Positions 1 to 5,506 of a DNA stretch of 5,893 nucleotides are shown here, one piece after another. Under the pieces are notes generated by a model. It was not told the DNA's origin. It was given only the letters and a program-made list of their open reading frames with translations, and searched no databases. Source of the DNA: a virus (taxonomy: Duplodnaviria; Heunggongvirae; Uroviricota; Caudoviricetes); IMG/VR virus record IMGVR_UViG_2534682175_000012; one strand, 5' to 3'. Both the position numbers and the translations under genes were made by a program. Numbering within the stretch: the stretch's first letter is position 1; each line of letters begins with the position of its first letter.

Positions 1-1119
1 TCAAATAACCAACTTAACCCATTCCTGACCTCGAGTATCGTTATAGCGATCGGTGGTTGCCTGGACTTTATGCCCTAGTAATGTTTTTGTATCGATACCC
101 TGTGCACGGTACAGCCGTTCTGATAGAGAGCGTTGTTCATGAAATGTTGGCGGAGTTTTTCCTGCTGGTGGAATTATCCCAGCCAGATCCCGTGCTTTGG
201 CAAAGTAGTCGCTCAGGTTGTCTTTACTCATCGGCTTCGGTTGTTTCTGGTGCCGACTATGGATTAGATATGGACTTAATATTCTGTCTCGGCACCCATC
301 AATAACTTCTTTTAACGTTATCCCAATGGCATCACAGCGTAGTGTAAGCGGTAACGCCAGACGCATTCCGGTTTTTCCCTGGGTGATATGCAAGTGTTCG
401 TTCCACACATCTGAAAAACGCATGTGGCAAATGTCATCACGGCGCTGACCAGTAACAATCGCAAGAAGCATTGCGTTACGGATAAAGTGTTTTTCAGGCG
501 TTGCATTGTAAATTTTTTGCCAGTCTTCCATGGTGAGCCTGGCTCTGGTTACTTTAGGGATCGGTTTACGGGTAGCCTCCGGAGGATTCCATCCAGGAGG
601 AACTTCCCCTGCATGCTGTGCTTCTTTATAAATATCAACCCATAATCCACGATTTACTCTCGCTGTGCTGACCATGTCTTTATCCAGCCACTCATCCAGT
701 ATTAATGCAAAGTCTCTTACTTCCAGTTCTTTCAATGGGTGGTTTCCCAGACGGGAAACCAGGTATGCAGCCATTCGAGTTTTTTCTTTGTGAGTTGTAG
801 CTGCAATATCTCCATTTTTCAGTCGCGCGTCCTGTATTTTCAGATATCGATCAACCCATGCCTTTAATCTGATGCCCCGACGTTTTGTTGCTGACGGACT
901 TTCATCAATTTTGCGCATGAAATATTCAGCTTCTGCTGCAGCTATTCGCTGATTGGCTGTGGAAGCGATTTTTTCTGCTTTGCCTTTGTCTGTTCCGAGA
1001 CCGTGAAATTTTCCAGTCACAGGGTTTTTATACTGGTAGTAAACCCTGCCAGTTCTGCGATCAAACTTTTCGTAAAGACCGGTTACGTCAGTGCTGTTTT
1101 TTCGTGGCCTCGGTGACAT
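1..1119 (-). CDS. int: Tyrosine-type site-specific integrase, lambda Int family (prophage integrase)
   Basis: Complete 372-aa ORF: ATG at 1119-1117 with AAGGAG about 10 nt upstream, stop (rc TGA) at 3-1. By eye the translation is collinear with lambda Int: N-terminal arm-binding-like region (YYQYKNPVTGKFHGLG), then catalytic residues in order: TGQRRDD (Arg), QGKTG (Lys), FHEQRSLSERLY (His-x-x-Arg), LLGHK...DRYNDTRGQEW (His and Tyr nucleophile). Family assignment rests on recalled lambda Int sequence, not a search. Confidence 0.93.
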   Translation of the reverse strand: MSPRPRKNSTDVTGLYEKFDRRTGRVYYQYKNPVTGKFHGLGTDKGKAEKIASTANQRIAAAEAEYFMRKIDESPSATKRRGIRLKAWVDRYLKIQDARLKNGDIAATTHKEKTRMAAYLVSRLGNHPLKELEVRDFALILDEWLDKDMVSTARVNRGLWVDIYKEAQHAGEVPPGWNPPEATRKPIPKVTRARLTMEDWQKIYNATPEKHFIRNAMLLAIVTGQRRDDICHMRFSDVWNEHLHITQGKTGMRLALPLTLRCDAIGITLKEVIDGCRDRILSPYLIHSRHQKQPKPMSKDNLSDYFAKARDLAGIIPPAGKTPPTFHEQRSLSERLYRAQGIDTKTLLGHKVQATTDRYNDTRGQEWVKLVI

Positions 1120-1357
1120 GAGTTAAAATCTCCTTCAGTGCATCATCATCGCCAGTATGAATTTCCGGCGCAATTCCCGTTTCACCAGGTCCAACAAATA
1201 CTGCCCGGCGATCTATCAGCCAACGCCCACGAATTTTTTGTGGTCTTGGAACGATGTATCCTAGTTTTCCGTATTTCACCAGGGTAGTGTTTGTTATTGG
1301 GAGACTGAACCGTTTTGGTTTCCACTCGTCGAGCGTTATCAGGTACTGTTCGCTCAT
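1088..1357 (-). CDS. xis: Excisionase (Xis-like recombination directionality factor)
   Basis: ORF immediately upstream of int, overlapping it by 32 nt as in lambda xis-int. ATG at 1357-1355 is preceded by GGAG; the ORF-track start at 1366 is a GTG three codons upstream. N-terminus MSEQYLITLDEW...IVPRPQKIRGRWLIDRRAV resembles lambda Xis (MYLTLQEW...). The exact start is uncertain. Confidence 0.75.
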   Translation of the reverse strand: MSEQYLITLDEWKPKRFSLPITNTTLVKYGKLGYIVPRPQKIRGRWLIDRRAVFVGPGETGIAPEIHTGDDDALKEILTHVTEATKKQH

Positions 1358-1418
1358 GGCTATCACTCCGGAACGCGCCAGTTGCAGAATACCAACGACA
1401 ACTGGCGACGGTTGAACA

Positions 1419-3890
1419 TTAAAAATCAGCCTGACTCGGGATCAGTTTTTGCCAGATAGCTGAAACGTATTTTGCCTGGTAACGAGCGTCATCAAGTGCA
1501 TTATGGCGCTCACCTTCGAATGGGATAGCAGTTCTGGCATCGAAGTCTATGGCTTTCCCCAGCTCAACGATTGTGCGTACATCGCGATCGTTGTAGTAAC
1601 GCCACGGGCAGGGGATCCCCTGCCGCTCGTATGAACGGCGCAAAATAGTGTTGTCGAAGTTGGCTCCATTTCCCCAGACCTGAACAAAAAATTCACCGGA
1701 GTTTTCGTCGATAAATTCCCGCAATTGTAACAGTGCATCATCTAACGGGATTTCATCGGTCATAATGGCAGATTGCGCTTCGCGTGATTGTTTAAGCCAC
1801 CATTTAATGGTGTCCCGATCAATGACTCCGCCAGCAGTTTCCAGATCGATAGTCTTACTAAATTCCGGTCCCATATCTCCGGTTTGCGGATCGAAAAATA
1901 TTGCACCTATTGAGATGATCGGGGCATCAGGATTTTTTCCCATGGTTTCAAGGTCGATCATTAGATGGTCACACGTCCTGCTGGTGGATGTGATTTCGTG
2001 ATGACCGTTCACCTTAATTGGGTGATCTGCCGTCTCGCCAGTTTCATTATCGCTATTGTGATGCTGATTGCCGCCAGTGTTCTCCTTGTGTGGATGTTCA
2101 GCGCCTTCCATTTCCTCCGGATCATCTTCCTGAACTTCAACCTGATACTCTTCATCGAATGTTTCTTGGTATGTTGCGTCGCCCATCACCGCGCCACAAT
2201 CAGGGCAGTTGCCGCCGCCGGTCTGACCGCAAGCGGTGCAGGCTTTTTCCGGTTCCTGTTGCACTACTGGTTCAGGTTGTTTCGTTTCTGGCTCGTTTTG
2301 TTGCGTATTTTGGCTGTTTTGTTCCGCTTTCTGGTCGTTCTGTTCCGTTTCTTGCTGGTTCTGGTTCGCAGAATCGCGGGTCTGGATCCCCTTAACCCAT
2401 TTCGGATCATTCGGGTCGCTAATCCCTTCAACAAATTCACCACGTGATACTGCAAGCAGTTCATCGGCGTCAGGCTGGCTGATATTGGCTGCCTGCATAA
2501 TTTTGTTTACTTCGTCAGCGGTAACTTTTACCGGTTCTGGCTGTGCGGTCGTGTCAGATGCACCAGTATTTTGTTGTGAACCTGAGTATGTACTGTTTTT
2601 GCGGGCGAAATATTCTTCTTTCGTGATTTCAGTAGCCCCGGCAGCCAGCGCCTTATCCAGACCAGAAAGTTTGTTTGCGCGACCGTATTTTTCTCCGTCC
2701 TTATCGGCGAAGAGGAAATAGAACGGCCCCTCACGCTCTACAGATGGTTCAGCTTCCGGCGCGGTTTCATTTTTTGGGATATCAGATACCTCAGTTTCCA
2801 CTGCATCAGTTTGTGTTTCTGATGACTGGAGAACATCAACAGTGCTCTGATTTGTTCCTTCATCTTCAAACACGCCCTTTGTAGTCAGGTATTCAGTAAT
2901 GTATTTGTTCAGTGCCACAGGATCTTTGTGAATGTCGATCGGACGCTCACGGACAAGGCCAAAAATAGTTTGGCGGTCGTAGCGAAGGGCATCAGGCTGT
3001 TTGCGCATTGATGCCGAGATACGCTTCCAGTCTTCGCGGTCGTTGTCGATAACTTCATTTTTTGCCCAGCGATGGATGCTGCCGTCAATGTTTCCGGCAT
3101 CCACATCACCAGGCCAGAGAGCGTAGGCCAGTTCGTCATCCAGTGTTTTCCATGTCTGCTTGTATTCGCGATGAATGACTGCAGTGACAGGGGAGATATT
3201 TTCTGCTGAGTTTTCAGTGTGCTGTCGGTTGACTCTGGCGCGGGCGAGATCAACAGCAGACGTGTATTTTCCGGTTTCCTTGCGTTCACCTTCGCGACGT
3301 TTTTTCCAGATGCGCATCTCTGCCTGAATTTCGGGCCATTTAGCTCCAGGCTTACATTTATGCTTAACCCACCCGATGGCATGCAACTTAAGTTCTGGAT
3401 ACATGGCGTTAACTTCTGGCATTTTCATCAACGCTTCAACGATATGTCCGTCGAATGTTGCCATGTCTTCCTGCAACAATTCCTGCGCGCTAATCACCAT
3501 ATCAACGGTGATGTTTTCACATGTGTCGAACTTAACCATGACAGCGTTCTGTACTTCAGGGGCCAGCTTGTCAAAAGTGACGTTCATCGGATCTGATTCA
3601 GTCTCAACCGGGACAAAGGAAGCAGACTCCTCATCCCAGCGGTTTTCCTGCATATATTCAGCATCCCAGGAATCGAGGGCAGGGCGGGGTATACCGGGTT
3701 TATCCTCGCAAACAAGAAATTTATAAGCGCAGTCCTGAGCAGCCGGATAATGCTCCAGGAATTGCCAGTGAAATTTTGCGCGGGCGCGACGTTCATCACC
3801 GGCTTCAATGGCAGTGGCTACAGCGACTGCACCTTCTTCCTTTATTGCCTGTTCGTCCGGAATGGCGGCGCAAATAAAGACTTTACTCAT
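1419..3890 (-). CDS. Large multidomain prophage protein: N-terminal domain of unknown function, Q/N/E-rich linker, Cys4 zinc ribbon, C-terminal DEDDh (DnaQ/SbcB-like) 3'-5' exonuclease domain
   Basis: Uninterrupted 823-codon ORF, ATG at 3890-3888 with GAGG about 10 nt upstream. C-terminal motifs seen in the translation: Exo I MIDLET (D646, E648; nt about 1947-1955), Exo II GNGANFD (D746; nt 1653-1655), Exo III RHNALDDARY (H796, D801; nt 1488-1505). Cys4 cluster CTACGQTGGGNCPDCG (res 551-566; nt 2193-2240). Low-complexity NQNQQETEQNDQKAEQNSQNTQQNEPETKQPEP (res 507-548). His-rich stretch at res 598-631. Sits directly upstream of xis, where lambdoid phages keep recombination/exonuclease genes. 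A relationship to RecE-like 'exodeoxyribonuclease VIII' proteins is suspected from memory only. Confidence 0.85.
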   Translation of the reverse strand: MSKVFICAAIPDEQAIKEEGAVAVATAIEAGDERRARAKFHWQFLEHYPAAQDCAYKFLVCEDKPGIPRPALDSWDAEYMQENRWDEESASFVPVETESDPMNVTFDKLAPEVQNAVMVKFDTCENITVDMVISAQELLQEDMATFDGHIVEALMKMPEVNAMYPELKLHAIGWVKHKCKPGAKWPEIQAEMRIWKKRREGERKETGKYTSAVDLARARVNRQHTENSAENISPVTAVIHREYKQTWKTLDDELAYALWPGDVDAGNIDGSIHRWAKNEVIDNDREDWKRISASMRKQPDALRYDRQTIFGLVRERPIDIHKDPVALNKYITEYLTTKGVFEDEGTNQSTVDVLQSSETQTDAVETEVSDIPKNETAPEAEPSVEREGPFYFLFADKDGEKYGRANKLSGLDKALAAGATEITKEEYFARKNSTYSGSQQNTGASDTTAQPEPVKVTADEVNKIMQAANISQPDADELLAVSRGEFVEGISDPNDPKWVKGIQTRDSANQNQQETEQNDQKAEQNSQNTQQNEPETKQPEPVVQQEPEKACTACGQTGGGNCPDCGAVMGDATYQETFDEEYQVEVQEDDPEEMEGAEHPHKENTGGNQHHNSDNETGETADHPIKVNGHHEITSTSRTCDHLMIDLETMGKNPDAPIISIGAIFFDPQTGDMGPEFSKTIDLETAGGVIDRDTIKWWLKQSREAQSAIMTDEIPLDDALLQLREFIDENSGEFFVQVWGNGANFDNTILRRSYERQGIPCPWRYYNDRDVRTIVELGKAIDFDARTAIPFEGERHNALDDARYQAKYVSAIWQKLIPSQADF
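2247..2372 (-). repeat. Degenerate short tandem repeats encoding the Q/N/E-rich low-complexity linker of the 823-aa protein
   Basis: The plus strand at 2270-2370 is built from reiterated GTTTTGTT / TTCTGG / GTTCCG blocks (for example ctgttttgttccgctttctgg, then cgttctgttccgtttcttgctgg). Translation is NQNQQETEQNDQKAEQNSQNTQQNEPETKQPEP. Confidence 0.5.
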
Positions 3891-3982: not shown

Positions 3983-4174
3983 TTAAAGACCTGCCGGGAT
4001 TTCGTTATTATCCTGGTGAATAACTTTATCGACCGGGTAACAGTTACCGGGAATTTTCTGTTCGGTTGCTGCAGTCATACATTCCTGCATTGTCCTGTGA
4101 ACACTGACTGCAATATCAACTGGCTCTCCGGAAACAAGATAAACTGTCAGAACAAGCGCAAATGCTGAATTCAT
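3983..4174 (-). CDS. Small hypothetical protein (63 aa) with N-terminal signal-peptide/TM-like hydrophobic segment
   Basis: ATG at 4174-4172 overlaps the stop of the upstream ORF in an ATGA arrangement; AAGGA 9 nt upstream. N-terminus MNSAFALVLTVYLVSG is hydrophobic; the rest is polar with two Cys. The ORF-track frame extends to 4228, and an alternative ATG lies at 4183. AT-rich with no recognisable family. Confidence 0.5.
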   Translation of the reverse strand: MNSAFALVLTVYLVSGEPVDIAVSVHRTMQECMTAATEQKIPGNCYPVDKVIHQDNNEIPAGL

Positions 4175-4359
4175 TGTGCACATCCTTTTGGCATCAGACG
4201 TAAACGAGCCAGCATTGAAACAATGCATATTTTATTTAATAGCTCCCGTTCTTGTTTTCTCTTGTTAATGGCATCTTCAGTAAATACTGGGTTACTGATA
4301 GTGACACCAATTTCAAAACAACCTTCAGACGTATTAACGTTTGGTAATAACGTTTTCAT
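4171..4359 (-). CDS. Small hypothetical protein (62 aa)
   Basis: Internal ATG at 4359-4357 of the 97-aa ORF-track frame is preceded by a strong GAGGA about 7 nt upstream. Its stop overlaps the start of the downstream gene (ATGA). Translation MKTLLPNVNTSEGCFEIGVTISNPVFTEDAINKRKQERELLNKICIVSMLARLRLMPKGCAQ. No family recognised. Confidence 0.55.
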   Translation of the reverse strand: MKTLLPNVNTSEGCFEIGVTISNPVFTEDAINKRKQERELLNKICIVSMLARLRLMPKGCAQ

Positions 4360-4376
4360 TATCGCGTCCTCAACAA

Positions 4377-4524
4377 TGAATTTTGTGATGCGGTGCCTGG
4401 TGCCTCCAGGTGACGTTAACCAGTTAACAATTAACGCCGGATACAGAGAACCCACCCATAACACTGTTTTTGGTTTTAACTGTTCCGCGTGCGCTCAGCC
4501 GCATTCACCACATCACAAAATTCA
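4377..4524. promoter_or_regulatory. Repeat-rich intergenic control region bounded by a perfect 14-bp inverted repeat (candidate operator or divergent promoter region)
   Basis: TGAATTTTGTGATG at 4377-4390 and its exact reverse complement CATCACAAAATTCA at 4511-4524. Inside: tandem GGTGCCT x2 (4392-4405), inverted CCTGG/CCAGG (4396-4410), and GTTAACCA-GTTAACAA-TTAAC (4415-4435). The left arm lies 18-31 nt upstream of the 62-aa gene start. Confidence 0.35.
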
Positions 4525-4599
4525 CTTTAAAAAGGGCGGCAGAGCAGTCACGGAGTAAAACTGATACCGCCAAACGTCACCAGAAAATTGATAACAGAG

Positions 4600-4900
4600 G
4601 GCGTTGCAGCGGGGTTGTCACTTAAGCGTATGGTCAACCTGACAACCCGGTGTCCTCAACGGGGAAGGAATAACCCCGCCATACTTACCGCCGCGCCATT
4701 TCGCGGATTGCCACAACCGGAAGCGCACGGTCGACGAAAATTTAACGACAGGCTATCTATGAACCAGCAACCTCGCCGTGCGCTTTCGCGTTATGCTCTG
4801 ACTTTTCAGAGAAATATCCTTTCAGTAAACTGTCAGTACCGGATGCTCACCCGTGTCCGGCGCACGCACTCCACCTCACCCGTGGAGAACTCCTTAAGTA
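4600..4900 (+). ncRNA. GC-rich structured island: candidate structured 5' leader or ncRNA upstream of the 73-aa ORF
   Basis: About 51-58% GC per 100 bp versus about 38% in the flanking small genes. Hairpins identified by hand: 4612-4620/4640-4648 (9 bp), 4660-4664/4674-4678, 4691-4695/4702-4706, 4717-4730/4776-4789 (about 13 bp with one G-U, 45-nt loop), 4839-4843/4856-4860 and 4869-4874/4882-4887. No minus-strand ORF spans the region. Strand is tentative. Confidence 0.3.
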
Positions 4901-4920
4901 CCAACCCTCAGGATGGTGAA

Positions 4921-5142
4921 ATGACTAGTAAAAATGTAAATATCCAGTTTAACCACGATGTTTCTCCTGCCGGACTTGCGGATGAACTCACTGCTATAAA
5001 AACAGCAATTATGCTACTTGTTGCTAAGTTGCCAGCAGCATCACAACCATCAGATATTTGTGACTCATTACGTAAGATGAATTCAACAAAATGCAACGAG
5101 ATGGCATCACTTATTGAAATAGCTATTGATTTTAATGATTAA
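4921..5142 (+). CDS. Small hypothetical protein (73 aa), encoded opposite to the surrounding operon
   Basis: ATG at 4921 with AGGA 7 nt upstream (4910-4913), TAA at 5140-5142. AT-rich with rare codons (ATA, CTA, AGT), typical of acquired cargo. Translation MTSKNVNIQFNHDVSPAGLADELTAIKTAIMLLVAKLPAASQPSDICDSLRKMNSTKCNEMASLIEIAIDFND. The same frame is open upstream to 4588, but that part is R-rich and uses rare Arg codons, so it is treated as leader. Confidence 0.5.
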   Translation: MTSKNVNIQFNHDVSPAGLADELTAIKTAIMLLVAKLPAASQPSDICDSLRKMNSTKCNEMASLIEIAIDFND

Positions 5143-5506
5143 TCGAAATCTCATGGCTAACTGTAACACTCCCGTCTGTGGCGGGGTGCTTTAAATCACA
5201 GGAGTTAACGCTTTTTGTTGCAAAGTAATTTTCAAGGGGGTCTATTCGAATCCCTTTCTTTTTCATTAACAAGCCAAACCCCTTATCAATGATGTCCATT
5301 AGATCCAGGAAGTATTTTTTATGTAAATCCTGGTTATCAGAGAGCTGCTTCTCTTCGTACAGACCGATAAAGGCACGACGCACGTTACCGGATATAGTAT
5401 AGATGGTTTCTTTTTCTACGGTACTCAGGTCAAGAGTCGCCAGTTGGGAACGAACTATATTCGCTGCCATTTCCTGGAATTGCATTGGTAAATCTTTAAA
5501 TTCCAT
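5132..5506 (-). CDS. Hypothetical protein (124 aa)
   Basis: ATG at 5506-5504 with GAGG about 7 nt upstream; lies 22 nt downstream of the 72-aa gene, implying an operon. Its 3' end overlaps the 3' end of the plus-strand 73-aa gene by 11 nt (convergent). No family recognised. Confidence 0.6.
   Translation of the reverse strand: MEFKDLPMQFQEMAANIVRSQLATLDLSTVEKETIYTISGNVRRAFIGLYEEKQLSDNQDLHKKYFLDLMDIIDKGFGLLMKKKGIRIDPLENYFATKSVNSCDLKHPATDGSVTVSHEISINH
5167..5196 (+). terminator. Weak candidate intrinsic terminator for the plus-strand 73-aa gene
   Basis: CCCG(5171-5174)-tctgtgg-CGGG(5182-5185) hairpin followed by tgCTTTaaaT, about 30 nt after the TAA. The stem is short and the T-tract poor, and it sits inside the 3' coding region of the convergent 124-aa ORF. 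Confidence 0.2.

Follow-up and report, generated by a model that had tools for sequence, protein, structure and literature searches.

A hairpin-rich island beside DicF in a lambdoid prophage probably joins the DicF precursor to an opposite-strand promoter, leader and small gene

The window analysed here is the whole 5,893-nucleotide (nt) stretch of the Caudoviricetes record IMGVR_UViG_2534682175_000012. It is the early-left arm of a lambdoid prophage, with almost all genes on the minus strand (Table 1), and the analysis concerns the island at 4600-4920 together with the small plus-strand open reading frame (ORF) that follows it at 4921-5142. An earlier note, made from the sequence alone, had described the island as a GC-rich, hairpin-dense plus-strand RNA of about 300 base pairs (bp) fused to the ORF. 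Raised GC content was confirmed (0.548 at 4600-4920 versus 0.467 for the whole window), and the list of ORFs agrees that the frame starting at ATG 4921 is the only convincing plus-strand gene of the window. For 4586-4920 the plus strand had a fold z-score of -3.2 and the minus strand one of -1.8, so that the folding of the island beats chance only modestly. Rather than a single RNA, the region is most probably a junction of two opposite-strand elements: on the minus strand the untranslated region (UTR) of the DicF precursor, and on the plus strand a moron (an independently transcribed accessory gene of lambdoid prophages, such as lambda bor and lom) made up of promoter, leader and ORF.

On its left the island adjoins DicF, which the earlier note had missed. 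An Rfam search was among its proposals, and a cmscan of the whole window at E<=1 found no Rfam family within 4586-4920 and returned just DicF and a sub-threshold match to STnc100. The DicF match (RF00039) is full-length (76.7 bits, the gathering score being 48; E=3.3e-16), and in alignment the window DicF is identical to K-12 dicF. The flagged region, from 4600 onwards, begins 15 nt upstream of DicF in the orientation of DicF, and most of it is conserved because DicF directly adjoins it on the left. From 4534 to about 4905 the window is about 98% identical to the ydfC-dicF spacer of the K-12 Qin prophage. Its DicF-proximal part, 4586-4716, shows 97-100% identity in nearly all of 102 unique DicF loci and is identical in K-12; by itself this part folds with a z of about -1 only. 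Loci with alternative small-RNA alleles in the DicF slot retain it too, and there a small hairpin of the precursor UTR bears a compensatory change from GGGG/CCCC to GAGG/CCTC. The processing role of the precursor UTR has been described in K-12 (Faubladier 1990; Ragunathan 2023, PMC10448788): DicF is excised from a polycistronic transcript begun at dicBp, the 5' end of a 190-nt species is made by RNase III and the 53-nt DicF by RNase E (PMC10448788; Faubladier 1990), and by reverse transcription PCR a single transcript spans ydfA to dicF (PMC10448788). Judged by its sequence, the stretch from 4586 to about 4800 is the minus-strand DicF precursor UTR of a dicBF-type operon, an element already known and shown experimentally in K-12.

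Within this stretch lies a long stem. The earlier note had drawn attention to a 13-bp stem with a 45-nt loop, and an inverted repeat of 13 nt, 92% complementary and with 45 nt between its arms, was indeed found at 4718-4730/4776-4788. The full arms, which pair at about 16 positions, contain one A-C mismatch and one bulge; in the minus-strand RNA the flanks lengthen this helix to some 22 bp. A distance of 190 nt from the 3' end of DicF (4534) reaches about 4723, within the arm 4718-4730, and the pairs of the stem are conserved in 83 loci while its loop has been swapped for at least four unrelated sequences. Because the 190-nt end falls in the arm, the pairs are conserved and the loop is replaced, the long stem most likely serves RNase III in the processing of pre-DicF, with an expected cut at about 4722-4723, cleavage being demonstrated in K-12 only. 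Two points count against this assignment: substitutions in the stem (18 of G-U type versus 7 of A-C type) do not settle the strand, and the fixed A-C mismatch would pair as G-U on the plus strand. The stem folds with a z of about -1.7 on both strands. RNAalifold applied to 84 DicF-upstream sequences gave almost no covariation (term of -0.59 kcal/mol), the sequences being too alike, and missed the long stem because of alignment gaps.

The DicF slot itself, equivalent to 4534-4585, is variable. Several alternative small-RNA alleles occupy it (in L146, L150, L156, L167, L212, L215, L239 and L253), with differing seed regions and terminator hairpins (e.g. GGGCGGACATCAGCCAGCAATGAAACTGATGCCGCC, GGGCGGGTATCACAAGGGAAAACAAAAAACGGATACCCGCC) behind the same RNase III stem, and the Rfam DicF model scored below its gathering score in all three such loci scanned (L150, L156, L215). 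These alleles may be undescribed DicF-like small RNAs with other targets. A DicF homologue of Salmonella enterica (L127, 3643-3920) has a quite different upstream region, without most of the 190-nt precursor block, and keeps only a module 'ACCACC...GTGGT...AAAAG.CAGGC.CACAACACGAAAGC', which is also present in e14 and in some E. coli loci.

Comparison among loci divides the region near 4800-4838 into two modules of differing evolutionary linkage. Part of 4400-5200 is matched in 4721 of 5426 complete E. coli genomes; a scan of genome contigs for DicF gave only 8 loci and little added diversity. Every locus with the DicF slot has the segment 4586-4699 and the stem arms, whereas only part of the loci have 4800-4920: among 133 sampled DicF loci, 29 have the two small hairpins of 4839-4887 and an opposite-strand ORF, 59 have the hairpins without an ORF (K-12 type) and 45 are without the hairpins. 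In L133 and L134 (Salmonella prophage) and L135 (metagenomic contig), homology to the window sets in precisely with the first base of hairpin 1 (4839) and runs through the ORF; neither DicF, by Rfam, nor the long stem was found in these three. The hairpin module also stands before other small ORFs in further unrelated contexts without DicF (L145, L154, L160), and in L215 it follows another unrelated upstream sequence beside an alternative small-RNA allele in the DicF slot. The boundaries at the junction fit exchange between conserved flanks.

The right-hand module opens the proposed plus-strand mRNA. The two adjacent hairpins with a common 10-nt sequence, which the earlier note had reported, are both in the minimum-free-energy (MFE) fold (4839-4860 and 4869-4887), and the repeat CTCACCCGTG lies in both loops, at 4846-4855 and 4875-4884. 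The repeat is absent from the second loop in homologues and is therefore probably incidental. Hairpin 2 occurs with at least four stem sequences at one place (CUCCAC/GUGGAG, CCCAAC/GUUGGG, ACCACACG/CGUGUUGGU and GCCACA/UGUGGU). Hairpin 1 has U-G/G-U pairs that are possible in plus-strand RNA only, and reaches 9 bp only there. The 3' arm of hairpin 3 holds the Shine-Dalgarno sequence in all leader types, several of them with a compensated CUCCAU/AUGGAG for CUCCU/AGGAG, and as an alternative pairing the anti-Shine-Dalgarno CUCCU (4890-4894) can meet 4910-4914.

When 37 distinct leaders were folded, the three hairpins were found in common. Aligning 31 distinct leaders gave 92.5% paired cells, compared with 84.5% in shuffles and 29-47% when the partners are slid. 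Covariation, a check proposed in the earlier note that yielded almost nothing for the DicF-upstream alignment, was evident in these leaders (0.186 versus 0.063 in shuffles, with none of 500 shuffles reaching 0.186). G-U cells number 53 and A-C cells 8, and the fold of 4838-4923 has z=-2.09 with the MFE structure making up 0.47 of the ensemble on the plus strand, as against z=-0.14 and 0.03 on the minus strand. Consequently, the G-U excess, the structure counts and the strand-asymmetric folding favour the plus strand for the leader. Hairpin 1 probably stabilises the mRNA, and hairpin 3 probably hides the Shine-Dalgarno sequence in part and thereby damps or regulates translation. The suggestion that the ORF is translated from a long structured leader thus stands as regards structure, with the two adjacent hairpins in it, but not as regards length, the leader being about 85 nt only. 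DicF was considered as a trans regulator pairing with the leader and rejected, the pairing energy being -26.5 kcal/mol against a shuffled mean of -30.9, with 435 of 500 shuffles equal or better.

No promoter-like element had been recognised in the earlier note just upstream of the ribosome-binding site. This is correct for the sequence directly before it, but a -35/-10 pair lies at 4803-4831, about 90 nt upstream of the ATG, from which we infer a transcript start at about A4838. A -10-like hexamer is found 6-7 nt ahead of hairpin 1 in five of six unrelated upstream contexts, as TAAACT (the window type), TGnTAAAAT, GATAAT with -35 TTGAGA, TGnTAACAT and TAAAAT. Among variants the promoter hexamers are invariant and the spacer varies. 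Transcription of this strand can be followed in published K-12 data. In total RNA-seq (Huang et al. 2020, PMC7373196, Table S1c), ydfC has 7.2 reads per million (RPM) antisense and 3.1 RPM sense, and antisense counts for dicF, dicB and ydfB are 0.08-0.34 RPM, dicF being at about 0.08 (PMC7373196). A 22-bp double-stranded RNA generated by RNase III and captured with p19 maps to K-12 U00096.2 1647116-1647140 (PMC7373196), and its antisense strand, UGUCCGGCGCACGCACUCCACC, is identical to window 4854-4875 (+). The duplex over 4854-4875 and the antisense counts together suggest that both strands are transcribed over hairpins 1-2 in K-12; since antisense is low over dicF and high over ydfC, the K-12 plus-strand transcript would start between them and not cross 4600-4800. 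A literature search on ydfC antisense transcripts gave nothing relevant.

Several observations weigh against a plus-strand promoter and leader. With 8 of 12 positions agreeing with consensus, the promoter-like site stays just under the scanner's threshold of 9 of 12 and went uncalled; in the Salmonella context L133 the -10 is poor. A single study supplies the K-12 antisense counts, which are low, and the transcript evidence is that of K-12 and not of the window strain. Covariation in the leader stems mostly from two or three lineages and hence from few independent events, hairpin 2 is degraded in one leader type (L012, 13 loci), and hairpin 3 is weak, the window having AGGATGG and not AGGAGGG. 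Finally, K-12, which has no ORF there, retains both the promoter-like site and hairpins 1 and 2, so that these may also, or instead, serve the minus-strand RNA.

This last point leads to the alternative that survives best, namely that hairpins 1 and 2 (4839-4887) act in the minus-strand dicBF transcript, in processing, stability or anti-termination, the plus-strand ORF being incidental at a recombination junction. K-12 and the 59 of 133 sampled DicF loci with both hairpins and no opposite-strand ORF would be so explained; the hairpins can form on either strand, and one Salmonella change (CCAGA/TCCGG) pairs as G-U on the minus strand only. It is nonetheless an improbable explanation, as the hairpins accompany plus-strand ORFs in at least five contexts without a DicF operon, the -10 hexamer keeps a fixed distance from hairpin 1, and the plus-only 9-bp form of hairpin 1 and the G-U excess both point the other way. 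The minus-strand fold is no better than shuffles, and DicF biogenesis does not need the hairpins, since 45 of the 133 loci are without them.

Far less credible is the whole island 4600-4920 as one plus-strand structured RNA, either a leader or a non-coding RNA of a toxin or defence module, which was the reading of the earlier note. The plus-strand z-score over 4586-4920 speaks for it, as do a frame upstream of the ATG that is open to 4588 in the window and an ORF of unassigned function at a prophage accessory position, but other findings contradict it. The stretch 4586-4800 is linked to the DicF slot and not to the ORF, whose homologues elsewhere share DNA with the window from 4839 onward only; the promoter-like site lies downstream of the long stem, and K-12 antisense over dicF is about 0.08 RPM. 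The open upstream frame is not conserved: a 184-aa (amino acid) ORF from TTG 4588 was rejected, since in 15 of the 20 loci carrying the ORF the upstream frame stays open over no more than 7-14 codons, and the conserved longer protein from about 4588 that the earlier note had named as evidence against itself was accordingly not seen. As to the proposed toxin or defence module, no toxin family, PADLOC match, reverse transcriptase, tandem RNA repeats or Rfam family was found, and the remark that no reverse transcriptase or other known partner is present holds good, with no such ORF in the window and negative Pfam and PADLOC searches. These searches covered the two genes adjoining the region, the next operon gene upstream and the equivalent pair in the related locus L003. 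A retron-type module finds no reverse transcriptase ORF in the window and no Pfam or PADLOC match among the tested genes, and a type III toxin-antitoxin system (ToxIN-like) no tandem repeat array, only one 10-nt sequence occurring twice, and no toxin match for the ORF. The small hydrophobic toxin of less than 60 aa expected of a type I toxin-antitoxin system is not encoded here, the ORF product being 73 aa, hydrophilic and predicted soluble.

The ORF itself looks like a real gene. Full-length homologues have 90% (E. coli), 73% (Salmonella) and 63% (metagenome) identity and share 39 invariant residues and a conserved length in different genomic contexts, and a strong Shine-Dalgarno sequence stands at a fixed distance. 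The hydrophilic protein is modelled by AlphaFold as three helices, a generic, low-confidence model with a predicted local distance difference test score (pLDDT) of 69.5. It has 7 clusters in a 90% database and 10 remote representatives, none annotated, and no Pfam, NCBIfam or PADLOC match was found for it or for its neighbour, the PHROG matches being to families of unknown function only. That it is a chance open frame antisense to an untranslated stretch of the operon, as its short length, the lack of a Pfam or NCBIfam family and the modest model confidence might suggest, is hardly believable in view of these homologues, the PHROG match (Table 1), the Shine-Dalgarno sequence and the eleven other ORF families in the same slot.

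At this one junction start at least 12 unrelated ORF families (59-101 aa), all preceded by the common leader and a strong GGAGG; every locus examined has a single ORF there. Two of these cassette families match the YmfI family (NF051477; E=5e-31 and 7e-13). For the weaker of the two there is a marginal match to the GhoS endoribonuclease as well, its 21.2 bits barely passing the cutoff of 21. Reading the hairpins as integron attC sites was rejected, there being no IntI and a single cassette per locus. On the other side of the ORF, the final 11 nt of the convergent 'MEFKDLP' gene overlap its 3' end in the window. The N-terminal 63 aa of this gene's product are common to phrog_6937 and phrog_1363. 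A cognate toxin/immunity-like pair of the plus-strand ORF and the 'MEFKDLP' C-terminus was considered, and is weakened by one C-terminal domain being paired with two unrelated plus-strand ORFs and by loci that carry only the 'MEFKDLP' N-terminal domain. Beyond the ORF, a terminator scan found the hairpin 5234-5257 followed by CTTTTTCATT, 92 nt past the stop codon, which could end the plus-strand mRNA.

Taken together, the favoured reading of two opposite-strand elements meeting at a junction would work as follows. On the minus strand, a dicBF-type transcript would start at a repressor-controlled promoter lying right of the window (beyond 5893) and reach DicF by reading through the 124-aa gene and the strand opposite the small ORF. 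Upstream of the gene block in the related loci L001-L003 stand a repressor gene of cI or dicA type and, in divergent orientation, a cro- or dicC-type regulator gene. RNase III would cut in the long stem at about 4722-4723 to give the 190-nt pre-DicF, and RNase E at 4585/4586 to give the 53-nt DicF. On the plus strand, comparative evidence and the K-12 antisense data are consistent with 4803-5142 being a self-contained moron, in which a weak constitutive sigma-70 promoter would start an mRNA at about 4838 with a leader of about 85 nt followed by the 73-aa three-helix protein. Lying antisense to a repressed early operon, the gene would be expressed in the lysogen; upon derepression of the operon, the plus-strand mRNA may be silenced by convergent transcription together with cleavage of the sense/antisense duplex by RNase III.

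A wider and decidedly more tentative idea is that promoter and three-hairpin leader are a portable expression platform marking a lambdoid prophage hotspot beside the DicF slot and antisense to the early-left operon, through which many unrelated small proteins would be expressed in the lysogen and silenced by convergent transcription and RNase III on derepression. If so, the families served would number at least 12 (YmfI-like, weakly GhoS-like and zinc-ribbon proteins among them), the hairpin that sequesters the Shine-Dalgarno sequence would add post-transcriptional control, and the proteins could serve the lysogen phase in superinfection exclusion, defence or host modulation. As most of the island is the known DicF precursor, no new RNA class or defence system is indicated. 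Annotation pipelines and the DicF literature treat the spacer as one minus-strand UTR, and a promoter firing the opposite way is indicated inside it; no description of an opposite-strand promoter, leader or cassette hotspot was found in the dicBF/DicF publications examined. In K-12 the plus-strand transcript would be antisense to the 3' end of ydfC and could affect how RNase III processes the dicBF transcript. The common leader before a dozen uncharacterised small proteins in many E. coli and Salmonella prophages makes them candidate lysogen-expressed genes with a shared, testable signal.

Further observations concern the neighbouring genes and related contigs. The 823-aa exonuclease has, at window 2190-2400 (-), a central low-complexity part in which Gln, Asn, Glu and Pro abound (QNQQETEQNDQKAEQNSQNTQQNEPETKQPEP...), and after it a Cys-rich CxxC...CxxC motif, the whole lying between the N-terminal region and a C-terminal 3'-5' exonuclease-like part. 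The STnc100 match (4327-4536, minus strand; 38.1 bits against a gathering score of 47, E=9e-6) spans the DicF-dicB spacer and the start of dicB. The 'MEFKDLP' genes (window, L001, L003, L012, L017, L034 and others) combine a conserved N-terminal domain (about 55 aa) with C-terminal tails that are hypervariable and 0-160 aa long, some loci encoding the N-terminal domain alone; they fall in phrog_6937, 1363 and 2151 (unknown-function families), and their 3' ends overlap opposite-strand ORFs by 11-56 nt across loci. In the leader-carrying contigs L133, L145, L154 and L215, a C4 antisense RNA lies a few kb away, above the Rfam gathering score, and isrK also exceeds its gathering score in L145, L154 and L215.

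Table 1. Positions of the features discussed, in window coordinates except for the last row
Feature	Position	Strand	Basis or remark
Integrase (phage Int)	1-1119		sole integrase among window ORFs
Excisionase-like ORF	1088-1366		
Exonuclease, 823 aa	1419-3890		
ydfD-like DUF1482 gene	3983-4174		
dicB	4171-4359		Pfam DicB, E=2e-40
DicF small RNA, 52-53 nt, own terminator hairpin	4534-4585	-	Rfam RF00039, K-12 identity
DicF-proximal precursor UTR, inside 190-nt pre-DicF	4586-4716	-	conservation and K-12 identity
9-bp stem in precursor UTR	4612-4620/4640-4648	-	
Small hairpins in precursor UTR	~4655-4676 and ~4691-4706	-	
Putative RNase III processing stem of dicBF RNA	arms 4718-4734/4773-4788, apical loop 4735-4772	-	inverted repeat and K-12 cut mapping
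Promoter-like site	-35 TTTTCA 4803-4808, 17-nt spacer, -10 TAAACT 4826-4831	+	sequence and comparison
Proposed 5' leader of plus-strand mRNA, ~85 nt	4838-4920	+	folding and comparison
Hairpin 1	4839-4846/4853-4860	+	8-9 bp, at proposed mRNA 5' end
Hairpin 2	4869-4874/4882-4887	+	
Hairpin 3	4899-4918	+	Shine-Dalgarno AGGAUG (4910-4915) in 3' arm
Small protein gene, 73 aa	4921-5142	+	phrog_7249 E=5e-46; WP_000202161.1
Convergent operon gene, 124 aa, 'MEFKDLP' family	5132-5506	-	phrog_6937 E=3e-82
Candidate weak terminator hairpins of plus-strand mRNA	~5168-5190, ~5234-5257	+	fold of 5143-5275, scan; inside convergent gene
Rfam side hits in C4/isrK contigs	L133 1900-1987, L145 3298-3485, L154 7170-7358, L215 2874-3062		

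Among known systems, the closest is the K-12 Qin dicBF operon (Faubladier 1990; Balasubramanian 2016, PMC5069750; Ragunathan 2023, PMC10448788), with the same downstream order of DicF, dicB and a ydfD-like gene and, as in the window, a stem at the mapped RNase III site and an RNase E site at the DicF 5' end. In K-12 the spacer directly follows ydfC, whereas in the window the 124-aa 'MEFKDLP' gene and the opposite-strand 73-aa gene intervene, and the untranslated stretch before DicF is, unlike that of K-12, about 546 nt long. The K-12 publications treat the spacer as minus-strand precursor only, with no internal promoter reported on that strand. In e14 of K-12, ymfI (L351, 5498-5839) is likewise an opposite-strand small ORF at the same early-left place, convergent with and overlapping ymfJ; unlike in the window, its upstream sequence is without hairpins 1-3, and the window ORF is unrelated to YmfI. 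The sequence upstream of ymfI has the dicF-dicB spacer motif GCGCTGAGCCGCATTCACC and no DicF, and a literature search on ymfI gave nothing relevant.

The ompA 5' UTR and the Gifsy-1 isrK-orf45 mRNA are examples of 5'-terminal stabiliser hairpins and of leaders that sequester the Shine-Dalgarno sequence. The window leader resembles them in that a hairpin stands at its putative 5' end and that the 3' arm of a hairpin contains its Shine-Dalgarno sequence; it differs in being without a sequence or Rfam relationship to them and in that no trans-acting activator was identified, DicF having been tested as a pairing partner. In common with morons, the window ORF is small, is present, absent or swapped among homologous prophages, has a promoter-like site of its own and is oriented independently of the repressed operon. 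Unlike morons, it lies antisense within the early-left operon beside a small-RNA gene, its terminator is not evident (weak candidates only), and a single junction with one conserved promoter and leader accommodates at least 12 unrelated ORFs.

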